A DNA stretch of 61,765 nt from Stx2 converting phage I. The position numbers are program-made. Shown here piece by piece: positions 12,001 through 15,000 of the stretch. Within the stretch, counting starts at the first letter, position 1, and every line of letters begins with the position of its first letter. The stretch lies in sequence record AP004402; one strand, written 5' to 3'.

Positions 12001-15000
12001 AGTGGCAGAGTCAGTTTAATCCGGCCTCCATTGTGGCTTATCCCTGGCGTGGTGAATACATTGCCTGTTACACGAAACCGGATGGTAAGCAGGATGTGTT
12101 TGTATTCAGTCCGGTGAACATGGATATCCGTTATCTCAGTACACCGTTTGACTGCGCATGGGTTGATCTCGCGAAAGATATGATGCGCGTGGTGACAGGA
12201 GACAAAATGTCAGTGCTTGCCGGGGGGGCTCTGCCCTCCACGATAAGGTGGCATTCAAAAATTTTTTCATTACCTGAAAGAACCTCTTTTTCCTGTATCA
12301 GGGTGAAATCTCCGGCGCCTGAGCGGGTGGGGATCACCATTATGGCTGATGATGTTCCTGTGATTCATTTTGCGCCGGGTACGTTTAAGGGAAGTGTGGT
12401 GAGACTTCCGGCAGCAACCGGGCAAAACTGGCAGGTGATGGTATCCGGATTCGGGCAGGTGGAACGAATAACCCTGAGTACATCAATGTCGGAGATGCCG
12501 GTATGACCAGAAAACCGTGGCGTGCGGGGAAGGATTTATCCACTGTTGTGGAGAATATGGAAATTGGCACCGGGCAGCGTGGTGACGGACGTCACGCATT
12601 TGTGACCCGTGAGGAACTGGTTGGTCTTAAACTCGCCCGGCGTCGAACATCGGGTGGTGCCTCATATGCACTGAATCCGGGTATTGAGATTGACAGTACT
12701 TTAATGACTGTTGATTTTCCCACAAAACCGCTGAATTTTAAGGCGACCGGTGGATTTGGCTCGGTTCTTCTTGAATGGGATATGCCTAATTATCGCGGAC
12801 ATTCACTGACTGAAATCTGGCGGGGTACGGAGGATGACCTTGCTGATGCAGTGCTGGTTGCCACGACGCCGGGGCAGGTTTACGGCGATCCGGTTGACCC
12901 TGGCTGGTCGGGATTTTACTGGATACGTTTTGTTAACGCGGCAGGAGTGAAAGGTCCATGGAATGCTGAAAAAGGCACTCAGGCACAAACACAGATCGGC
13001 GTGAAGGCCATCATTGACCAGATCCGCGATGAGGCTGCAAAGTCGCCGGTTGTGTCCGAGCTGCGTAAAGAAATAAAAAACGCGCAGGGGCAGGCTGTAA
13101 AGGATGCTGCAATTAAGACAACCGAAGTTGTAGGGACTCTCAGGGAAGAAACGACAAGAACGATTGGTGGTATTGAAACCCGCATTAGCACACTGGATTC
13201 GTCAACCAGTGAATCGCTTAATGAGGTCGACAAGCGCATCACTAAATTGGATAAAGAAGGCGGTGAAGCTTTTCTTGCAATGTGGTCAAAAAAAGCGGGA
13301 GTTGATGGTATCACTGCGGGGATCGGGATTGTCGCCGGAAAAGACAGTGAAGGCAGGCCTGTAAGTCAGGTTGCAATTTCTGCGTCGCAGTTGTTTGTCT
13401 TTGACCCGAATAATCCGGATAACACAGCCTATCCGTTTGCGGTATCAGGTGGCAAGGTAGTGATCCCGAAAGCGATGATTTATGACGCGGTGATTGAAAC
13501 ACTGGTGTCGCGGAAGGTTGTGGCGGATGAGGTAAAAGCCGGGGTAAGTATCACTTCGCCAGTTATCCGGAGTGCCGTTATTCAGAACGGAAACTTTCAG
13601 GTTGATTCTCAGGGTAACCTGAATATTGGAGGCCTTTTCAGTGTTACGTCACAAGGGCAACTGACAATTCGTTACTCTAATCAGAATGTAGGACTGGTGA
13701 TCCGCAATGATAAAATTGAGGTTTATGACCAGAATGGACGACTGGCTGTTCGCATAGGCAGATTACGCTGATCAGGAGGTGAGTATTGGAATACGGTTTT
13801 GCCATTTATAACAGAAATAACGTTAATGTTACGGGCGTGCTGACTCCAGTATTTTTCCTGGACAGATTTACAGCGGAGTCTGGCTCAAAGACGTACACTA
13901 ATAAACCCGACGGGAAATCATTGCAGGCTGTATGTTGTTTATTTCCCTGGAATAATGTATTTGCGGATCGGAAAGTACCGAAGATAACCATTAATGACAA
14001 TACGGTGACGTGGTCGAATCTTGAGCAGGGTATGGGATCTTATATTTATACATTCTGGGGATAAGTGTTATGTACGGTTTGAGCATTATGAAGCCGGATG
14101 GCAGCGTATGGATAAGTCCAGGTTTTACGCCGCAGTGTCTGATCAACAAAGGCACCATACCGGCGACTGAAAAGTCTTTTTTTAAAACATCAATCCCGTC
14201 AGGCAAAAGTTGTTTTTTCTTTATCAGAACAGAGAAGAAGGCCGATGTCATGTACACGCATGAACAGATTGATGGATATCATGCACTAAGGCTTCATGTA
14301 ATTGTCAGGGGAACGAACCCTGGTGTTACGACGGTTTATGCTTTCGCGAATATGGTTACTCCACCTTCTGAGTATGGTATCGCCATGTATAACCCGGACG
14401 GTGAGATGATTTATCATGGCGAAATGATGCTGCTTGACGCGAAGTTAATACCTGTTGATATCAAATTTGAAAAGGACCTTGGATATCCATGCGCAATCAT
14501 GCCTGCACTGGTCGGGTATTATAACTGGAAAAGAACTCCTTATGATCGACCGATTTATACCACATCCACTGGTGCTACAGGAAATAAAATATATTCCTGT
14601 GAGCATTATTCCGGTGGTGCAACATGGGATATTCGAAAGCCGTATATAGATAAGGTCCTGGTTATTAATACATCAGTATATGATTAGTTGAAGCGAGTCT
14701 TTAATATTCATTTAAAATGTCTAAAAAGATGTATTATTAAAAAGTTTAGCGTGTTATCTGAATACAGGATATCTTAAATGAAGAGTATAGCAACACTGGT
14801 TGTGTGTGCAATCTCCGGGATTGCCTGTGTAAATTTATCTGCACATGCAGCAGAAGGAGAGCATACAATTTCTCTGGGGTATGCGCACTTTCAGTTTCCG
14901 GGACTGAAGGATTTTGTAAAGGATGCGACTGCTCATAACAGGGAGACTTTCAGTCATTTCGTCAACAGAAACTACTTTTCTTCATTGGGCGAATATACAG

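Follow-up and report, generated by a model that had tools for sequence, protein, structure and literature searches.

In the genome of Stx2 converting phage I (Stx, Shiga toxin; record AP004402, 61,765 nucleotides, all of which were analysed and are called the window here), two small open reading frames (ORFs) of 92 and 205 codons, ORF92 and ORF205, stand directly behind the gene for the central tail needle. We propose that their products probably form a split three-domain receptor-binding protein (RBP), with domain D1 in ORF92 and domains D2-D3 in ORF205, which caps the distal end of the trimeric needle. By sequence, genomic context and predicted fold the module belongs to the family of RBPs encoded next to gpJ-type fibre genes, of which an LptD-binding member has been solved. 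The functional reading is not new, because Matusiak et al. (2025, PMC12309495) and Bubenchikov et al. (2026, bioRxiv 10.64898/2026.04.10.717836) have already proposed the equivalent proteins of phage phi24B as the BamA-binding tip of the needle.

The window is that of a short-tailed Stx phage of the 933W/Sp5 type, and the 1.5 kb around the two genes are 100% identical in 933W, VT2-Sakai (Sp5), the Stx1-converting phage and about 100 further short-tailed Stx phages. Both genes are on the plus strand. ORF92, which constitutes D1, has a TTG start and spans 13786..14064 (933W L0126, Sp5 ORF72/ECs1234, phi24B gp55), whereas ORF205 has an ATG start and spans 14070-14687 (933W L0127, Sp5 ORF73/ECs1235, phi24B gp54), with D2 in its residues 1-98 (14070..14363) and D3 in residues 99-205 plus the stop codon (14364..14687). 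A reading of this region from the sequence alone had placed here three copies of a domain of about 90 residues, marked by a YG-containing motif followed by PDG, once in the 92-residue frame and twice in the 205-residue frame. The motif copies are real: EYGFAIYN at residues 2-9 of ORF92 (13789..13812), MYGLSIMKPDG at residues 1-11 of ORF205 (14070..14102) and EYGIAMYNPDG at residues 101-111 of ORF205 (14370..14402), all on the plus strand. PDG follows directly in both ORF205 copies, but in ORF92 it comes 30 residues later (residues 41-43) and out of register.

Pairwise similarity between the three segments is weak and lies within their first 8-46 residues. BLASTP between segments gave E values of 0.018-0.033 over 10-12 residues, and Smith-Waterman alignment compared with 2000 shuffles gave p values of 0.0075, 0.028 and 0.031, so that direct alignment of the segments, by which the sequence-only reading had proposed to judge the repeat, is only marginal. 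At the profile level the similarity becomes significant. The ORF205 family (85 full-length relatives from an exhaustive hidden Markov model (HMM) search, giving an alignment of 86 sequences) was split at residue 98, and hhalign of its N-terminal against its C-terminal half yielded an E value of 7.8e-6 with a probability of 84% over 86 columns; the ORF92 family matched the N-terminal half with an E value of 3.7e-4 and the C-terminal half with 1.9e-4. A shallower first profile comparison had given 0.0045. The three hhalign scores (31.2, 22.5 and 24.1) exceed those of reversed-alignment controls (10.4, 9.7 and 14.0) and beat 40 of 40 column shuffles, with shuffle maxima of 20.7, 16.9 and 18.4. 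Once the N-terminal domains of the fused homologues described below join the ORF92 profile, its E value against the C-terminal half weakens to 0.19, and D1 is therefore the most divergent copy.

The structural models point in the same direction. AlphaFold2 (AF2) predicted ORF205 with a predicted local distance difference test score (pLDDT) of 76.9 and a predicted template modelling score of 0.75, and ORF92 with a pLDDT of 86.1. All three segments display a succession of six strands in like order and at near-equal offsets, with the motif in a short hairpin ahead of them at the N-terminus: strands 23-28, 33-36, 46-51, 66-70, 73-77 and 86-91 in ORF92, 24-30, 37-43, 48-54, 60-67, 70-77 and 87-93 in the N-terminal half of ORF205, and, numbered from residue 100, 25-29, 35-37, 48-53, 61-71, 74-85 and 96-101 in its C-terminal half, where the hairpin is at 4-8/14-18 and additional short strands occur at 42-44 and 90-92. 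Both models match the same small lectin-like sandwiches, 3WMP (SLL-2) and 2CCV (Helix pomatia agglutinin), which both have the H-type lectin fold. From the profile scores, their controls and the AF2 strand patterns we regard as confirmed that ORF92 and the two halves of ORF205 are three domains homologous to one another, with lengths of 92, about 98 and about 107 residues, each predicted to be a small beta-sandwich. Within the ORF205 family, conservation is concentrated in residues 1-27 (2.1 bits), 87-96, 99-124 (2.07 bits) and 195-205, with values of about 2.1-2.3 bits against 1.0-1.2 bits elsewhere. The pLDDT of ORF205 falls below 50 at residues 1-17, 97-107 and 111-120, where motif copies 2 and 3 are found, and both well-conserved hairpin stretches (1-27 and 99-124) contain such segments.

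Natural fusions of the two genes bear on how their products would work together. The exhaustive HMM search returned nine proteins of 309-323 residues in which the ORF205-like part begins at about residue 95-110 and the N-terminal 95 or so residues align with the whole of ORF92, sharing the blocks GF..., F.(I/V)D, SGS(K/R)(T/S)Y and GNTV(S/T)W. In a set of 133 sequences, the ORF92 HMM matches the fused proteins at 7e-6 to 0.03, and positions 13-78 of the fused-family HMM match JenP2 gp22 (1e-7), vB_EcoS-95 gp84 (1.4e-6) and Bas05_0023 (3.4e-4). A further search found 46 fused-type proteins in prophages of Pantoea, Klebsiella and Erwiniaceae and in phage contigs. The two fused homologues that were located (315-320 residues) overlap the stop codon of a gene of the gpJ type that has a PF09327 domain, and a lateral fibre gene is next. 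As D1, D2 and D3 occur there in a single polypeptide, we argue that the products of ORF92 and ORF205 function as a unit, in a 1:1 ratio. Other candidate fusions were rejected. Two proteins from E. coli assemblies, P0014 (182 residues, "outer membrane protein") and P0025 (116 residues), are frameshifted read-throughs and most likely sequencing or annotation artefacts, and P0100, a repetitive metagenomic protein of 2515 residues in which a narrow profile matched five stretches, is probably unrelated rather than a fibre-RBP fusion, as the broader family HMMs give no match to it.

A tblastn search of phage genomes showed that relatives of ORF205 occur well beyond the Stx phages, in Queuovirinae (JenP2, 61% identity), T5-like Pectobacterium phages and T1-like Drexlerviridae, the latter including vB_EcoS-95, tonijn, SECphi27, swan01 and about 100 Klebsiella phages of the Webervirus type. 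The ORF205-family HMM matches JenP2 gp21 (1e-72), vB_EcoS-95 gp83 (2e-69) and Bas05_0024 (2e-27), and the ORF92 HMM matches their partners JenP2 gp22 (2e-47), vB_EcoS-95 gp84 (1e-33) and Bas05_0023 (4e-7). In each case examined, the pair, or one larger gene, is the immediate neighbour of the central tail-fibre gene. JenP2 gp22 and gp21 adjoin the central tail fibre J; vB_EcoS-95 gp84 and gp83, with the lipoprotein gp85, adjoin a J-like gene; in PeterMerian (Bas05) 0023 and 0024, with the lipoprotein 0025, come directly after J; and in FritzSarasin (Bas04) 0024 and 0023, with the lipoprotein 0025, adjoin J. In the T5-like phage DU_PP_V, the ORF205 homologue p108 follows pb4 and takes the place of pb5. 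A Foldseek search of viral models found the fold also in uncharacterised proteins of Proteus, Providencia, Xanthomonas, Pseudomonas and Acinetobacter phages.

In the window, the corresponding neighbour is the gene for the central needle or tail-tip fibre (12503..13771, plus strand, 422 residues; 933W L0125, Sp5 ORF71/ECs1233, the equivalent of phi24B gp56), whose product carries PF09327 (Phage_Tail_Tip) at residues 256-333 and matches PHROG 496, tail fiber. We presume that this needle is the docking partner of ORF92 and ORF205. The sequence-only reading had put the two frames after the tail fibre genes; a fibre-type gene is indeed upstream, but the collagen-like lateral tail fibre gene (L0121) lies farther upstream than the nozzle and needle genes, and the position is therefore properly described as after the central needle gene. 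The last 150-200 or so residues of the needle align with the C-termini of JenP2 gp20, vB_EcoS-95 gp82, Bas05_0022, Rtp43, two prophage J proteins and DU_PP_V pb4 (7 phages or loci), and these fibre C-termini, that of the needle included, end in a common motif, ...N..I.V.D.NG...V.IGR. Since they align in front of all these modules, a conserved dock accompanies the module in podoviruses and siphoviruses.

The loci just described are the "bona fide RBP loci" of Maffei et al. (2021, PMC8594841), who could match their allelic variants to the terminal receptor in all small siphoviruses for which it had been determined, and Table S5 of the BASEL collection lists Bas04 as dependent on BtuB and Bas05 on FhuA. 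The two-gene loci of that study (Bas04 0024/0023 and Bas05 0023/0024) resemble the locus studied here in that proteins of about 92-103 and about 197-205 residues accompany a fibre with the same conserved C-terminus; identities to ORF92 and ORF205 are 52% and 45% for Bas04 and 28% and 28% for Bas05. They differ in that the phages are siphoviruses with a long gpJ-like fibre and BtuB or FhuA as receptor, the genes are often on the strand opposite to J, and a lipoprotein gene is included. Small lipoprotein genes of this kind (MKKLIAV...LTGC) were seen in siphovirus loci L003 (4452-4727), L006 (4615-4842, minus strand) and L013 (6777-7046, minus strand), and presumably encode superinfection-exclusion proteins like Rtp45, Cor or Llp.

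To the wider family also belong Rtp44 of phage Rtp and RBP_Oeko of phage Oekolampad (Bas18), which are LptD-binding RBPs of small siphoviruses (PDB 9RPT/9RQI; Dunbar and van den Berg, PNAS 2025, PMC12685063; Black et al. 2025, PMC13035648). RBP_Oeko binds LptDE directly, as seen by cryo-electron microscopy, and point mutations that confer resistance abolish binding. According to Black et al. (2025, PMC13035648), LptD RBPs have a lectin-like sandwich fold in which the base, with the N-terminus in it, is conserved and the loops at the tip vary, and their closest PDB match is 3WMP. The AF2 model of ORF205 matches the fold of the solved RBP (PDB 9RPT chain C). The ORF205-family HMM weakly matches residues 166-249 of Rtp44 (311 residues), with 24.8 bits, and by eye Rtp44 shows three G-I-(Y/N)-(I/V) starts near residues 4, 116 and 210. 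Rtp44 and RBP_Oeko are single polypeptides of about 310 residues with LptD as receptor, the lipoprotein Rtp45 present and binding experimentally proven, whereas in the Stx phage there are two genes and binding is only proposed. A related logic is found in T5, where pb5 is a non-trimeric RBP bound non-covalently to the tip of the trimeric central fibre pb4 and encoded beside it, with Llp for exclusion.

For the short-tailed Stx phages themselves, the closest information comes from phi24B, a sister phage (Traversvirus) in which gp55 (YP_009168169.1) and gp54 (YP_009168170.1) have like order after the needle and like sizes, and for which the same BamA-tip proposal has been made. Matusiak et al. 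(2025, PMC12309495) modelled YP_009168169.1 ("Ig-like", that is, immunoglobulin-like) and YP_009168170.1 ("hand-like") on the tip of the spike and against BamA and proposed them as undetected RBP components; AF2-Multimer favoured a "hand-like" protein that caps the spike trimer and contacts BamA. Bubenchikov et al. (2026) report the phi24B virion structure, with gp56 as the trimeric needle and gp57 as the nozzle; additional density at the tip of the needle, small and asymmetric, fits a gp54-gp55 heterodimer. Both papers describe the small protein as Ig-like and possibly a homotrimeric adaptor, whereas we argue for a 1:1 complex. The sections of them used here make no mention of the triplication, the D1-D2-D3 fusions, the match to the LptD RBP or the Sp5 deletion result considered below.

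On this basis, the suggestion in the sequence-only reading that the frames could be a fibre accessory or receptor-binding module is favoured, in view of the homologues at receptor-specificity loci beside gpJ-like genes and of the finding of gp54 (204 residues) in the phi24B virion proteome (Bubenchikov et al. 2026). We envisage that ORF92 and ORF205 are translated together from the late tail transcript, with a gap of 5 nucleotides and no promoter or terminator between them, and that their products would assemble 1:1 into a body of three sandwiches. The conserved N-terminal YG-hairpin and the last strand of each domain would form a base that docks on the conserved C-terminal domain of the needle, and the variable loops at the opposite end would contact an outer-membrane protein, most probably BamA. 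More tentatively, and as a possibility that we regard as less probable than its opposite, D1, D2 and D3 might pack as a pseudo-threefold cap in which each YG-hairpin contacts one chain of the needle, so that one asymmetric receptor face is presented on a threefold fibre.

Several observations weigh against this proposal, and the strongest of them is genetic. Mondal et al. (2016) deleted genes throughout the late region of Sp5, in frame and leaving no marker, with separate primer sets for ORF72 (leaving M-E-Y-F-W-G) and ORF73 (leaving M-Y-G-V-Y-D). As listed there, nine genes are needed for plaques and lysogens on K-12 MG1655 (ORF60, 61, 62, 65, 67, 70, 71, 79 and 80), and deletion of ORF64 or ORF76 reduces lysogenisation; the needle gene ORF71 is essential for tail formation. 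ORF72 (92 residues) and ORF73 (205 residues) are outside the essential nine and are not named as defective, whereas their neighbours, the nozzle gene ORF70 and the needle gene ORF71, are among the nine. An RBP that was the only terminal one should be essential, and the simple RBP reading is therefore strained. This result is taken from the primer sets and the list of essential genes, and the two deletions in Sp5, which is identical here, may cause a partial defect. The result is compatible with a module that makes adsorption faster or broader but is circumvented on rough K-12, with a second receptor or with a partial defect. Since Sp5 tolerates the loss of either gene on K-12, the module probably raises the efficiency or range of adsorption and is probably not the sole route to DNA ejection.

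Further points on the same side concern the virion, the receptor and the fold. In phi24B virions gp54 was of low abundance and gp55, the ORF92 equivalent, was undetected when searched as a protein of 75 residues (Bubenchikov et al. 2026). The proposed contact of these proteins with BamA comes from published in-silico multimer models, and the BamA-binding protein had earlier been assumed to be the lateral fibre. The nearest allele with an experimentally typed receptor, that of Bas04 (45% identity), goes with BtuB and not BamA. Identity between ORF205 and the solved RBP_Oeko is about 10%, and a docking role of the YG-hairpins is suggested only by their conservation and by the low confidence with which they are modelled in the isolated chain. 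A scan for lipoboxes, which covered all of the window, found no superinfection-exclusion lipoprotein beside ORF92 and ORF205, where lom is present instead. Such a lipoprotein accompanies the siphovirus loci but may not be a defining component, and a temperate phage has repressor immunity.

The length of ORF92 matters for the proteomic result. The 933W annotation of L0126 (AF125520 43752-43979) and those of phi24B start at an internal GTG and give 75 residues, the stretch concerned being window 13786-13836. This shorter reading cuts off the N-terminal motif, which is kept in every homologue, and the 92-residue reading, which is that of the Sp5 annotation, is for this reason the right one. A strong Shine-Dalgarno sequence, AGGAGG (13774..13779, plus strand), can be read from the sequence 6 nucleotides before the TTG start and likewise favours the longer protein. 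Proteomic searches that use the 75-residue sequence could miss N-terminal peptides.

Among the other explanations for the two genes, the one that survives best is that they encode a virion tip adhesin whose receptor is not BamA but, for instance, BtuB or another TonB-dependent transporter; it would serve as an auxiliary or host-range module, with BamA seen by another tail protein. The tolerance of single deletions on K-12 would fit this explanation, as would the BtuB dependence that goes with the nearest typed allele (Bas04 0023/0024) and the spread of the family over BtuB, FhuA and LptD as receptors. However, an identity of 45% is no predictor of specificity, since the variable regions differ, and purified BamA blocks seven such podoviruses in competition experiments, with infectivity down by 2-3 logs, so that BamA is a major route. 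In the phi24B structure paper, the beta-prism surface of the needle is considered too simple and the lateral-fibre domain an unlikely trigger, leaving the module as the main candidate (Bubenchikov et al. 2026). We regard a receptor other than BamA as unlikely, while giving it more weight than the explanations that follow.

It is improbable that ORF92 and ORF205 are assembly factors of the needle or fibre, comparable with tail-fibre assembly chaperones and without a function in the virion itself. A small ORF that immediately follows a fibre gene often encodes a chaperone; gp55 was undetected and gp54 scarce in phi24B virions, and a structural or chaperone-like role is among the possibilities named in Matusiak et al. 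(2025). Yet chaperones are normally needed for infectious particles, whereas these genes are dispensable and the needle gene is essential. Moreover, gp54 is present in purified virions, the structural relative RBP_Oeko binds its receptor directly, and Pfam and NCBIfam scans of ORF92 and ORF205 gave no family match, of a chaperone or otherwise. A sequence search of PDB chains with the two proteins likewise returned chance-level matches only (E > 0.2), and a literature search on L0127 gave unrelated papers only.

A moron was another suggestion of the sequence-only reading, and the database names point the same way. The region is AT-rich as had been stated, with a GC content of 0.409 in ORF92 and 0.422 in ORF205 compared with 0.50-0.52 in the two upstream tail genes and 0.494 in the window. 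ORF92 matches phrog_557 (E 1.7e-35, residues 1-92) and ORF205 matches phrog_425 (E 4e-81, residues 1-205), families named "outer membrane protein" and "membrane associated protein". These names have no basis in the sequences, because neither a signal peptide, a lipobox nor a hydrophobic segment is present: the N-termini MEYGFAIYNRNN and MYGLSIMKPDGS are not of the signal-peptide type, no transmembrane segment was found in either protein (maximum Kyte-Doolittle hydropathy over 19 residues of 0.82 in both), and the lipobox scan of the window gave nothing near 13.8-14.7 kb. The genes are tightly arranged, ORF92 starting 14 nucleotides past the needle stop and ORF205 starting 5 nucleotides past the ORF92 stop, and a consensus scan, which is weak evidence, found no sigma-70-like or terminator-like sites in 13771-14687, nor any farther on before the end of lom. 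Downstream of ORF205 is lom (14778-15512, PF06316), separated by an intergenic stretch of 90 bp with 24% GC (14688-14777) and followed by a strong, convincing terminator-like hairpin with a T-run (15536-15554). With this AT-rich gap before it and the terminator behind it, it is lom that looks like a moron unit of its own, unlike the ORF92/ORF205 pair. Thus, although the low GC content, the position next to the classical moron lom, the dispensability for lytic and lysogenic cycles in the laboratory and the PHROG category of ORF205 ("moron, auxiliary metabolic gene and host takeover") could be taken as signs of lysogenic-conversion or superinfection-exclusion membrane proteins acquired with lom, we consider this highly improbable, given the lack of export signals and of a promoter before the pair or a terminator behind it, the homologous pairs in strictly virulent T1-like, T5-like and Queuovirinae phages, the finding of gp54 in virions and the negligible membrane affinity computed by Matusiak et al. 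(2025).

Comparison with a second Stx-phage allele, represented by phi419 and Stx2_EH0337, covered window 12400-15600. Starting at the 3' end of the nozzle gene and as far as about 14250, within ORF205, divergence is 10-30%. Beyond this point phi419 is 97-100% identical to the window, and Stx2_EH0337 is 88-95% identical up to the end of ORF205, after which identity drops sharply and the lom region differs or is replaced. The pattern of identities indicates mosaic exchange among Stx-phage alleles, with a breakpoint inside ORF205 near 14250. As an RBP signature, allelic variation among Stx phages proved uninformative: divergence is chiefly in the coiled coil of the needle, in ORF92 and in the first third of ORF205, and ORF205 is 97.6% conserved.

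Upstream, the nozzle gene (10803-12506, 567 residues) overlaps the start of the needle gene in an ATGA at 12503-12506, an arrangement that points to translational coupling between these two essential genes of the tail. Elsewhere in the window, the lipobox scan matched a 97-residue lipoprotein at 59825-60118 on the minus strand, taken as Bor, and 59329-59793 on the plus strand, taken as the Rz spanin, near the lysis region; a further match at 19.7 kb is an unlikely ORF.

Short-tailed Stx phages spread Shiga toxin genes. BamA, an essential protein, has been reported as their receptor since 2007, and the ORF92/ORF205 pair, already named so by others, is the leading candidate for the protein that binds it. 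To that proposal the present analysis adds formal evidence for three homologous domains, natural fusions that favour a 1:1 complex over a homotrimeric adaptor, and a link in sequence and fold to the one protein of the wider family with an experimental structure, the LptD binder of Oekolampad. It also draws attention to the published Sp5 deletion series, in which neither gene is essential and which any RBP claim must explain. If the pseudo-threefold cap is true, it would be a general answer, common to podoviruses and siphoviruses, to the symmetry mismatch between a trimeric fibre and a monomeric outer-membrane protein; the D1 | D2-D3 split and the fused variants would be alternative encodings of one particle, and the long-sought BamA-binding protein of Stx phages would be named. 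The family appears as a set of modular binders of essential and non-essential outer-membrane proteins (BtuB, FhuA, LptD and perhaps BamA) on a conserved dock, which is of practical interest for retargeting phages.

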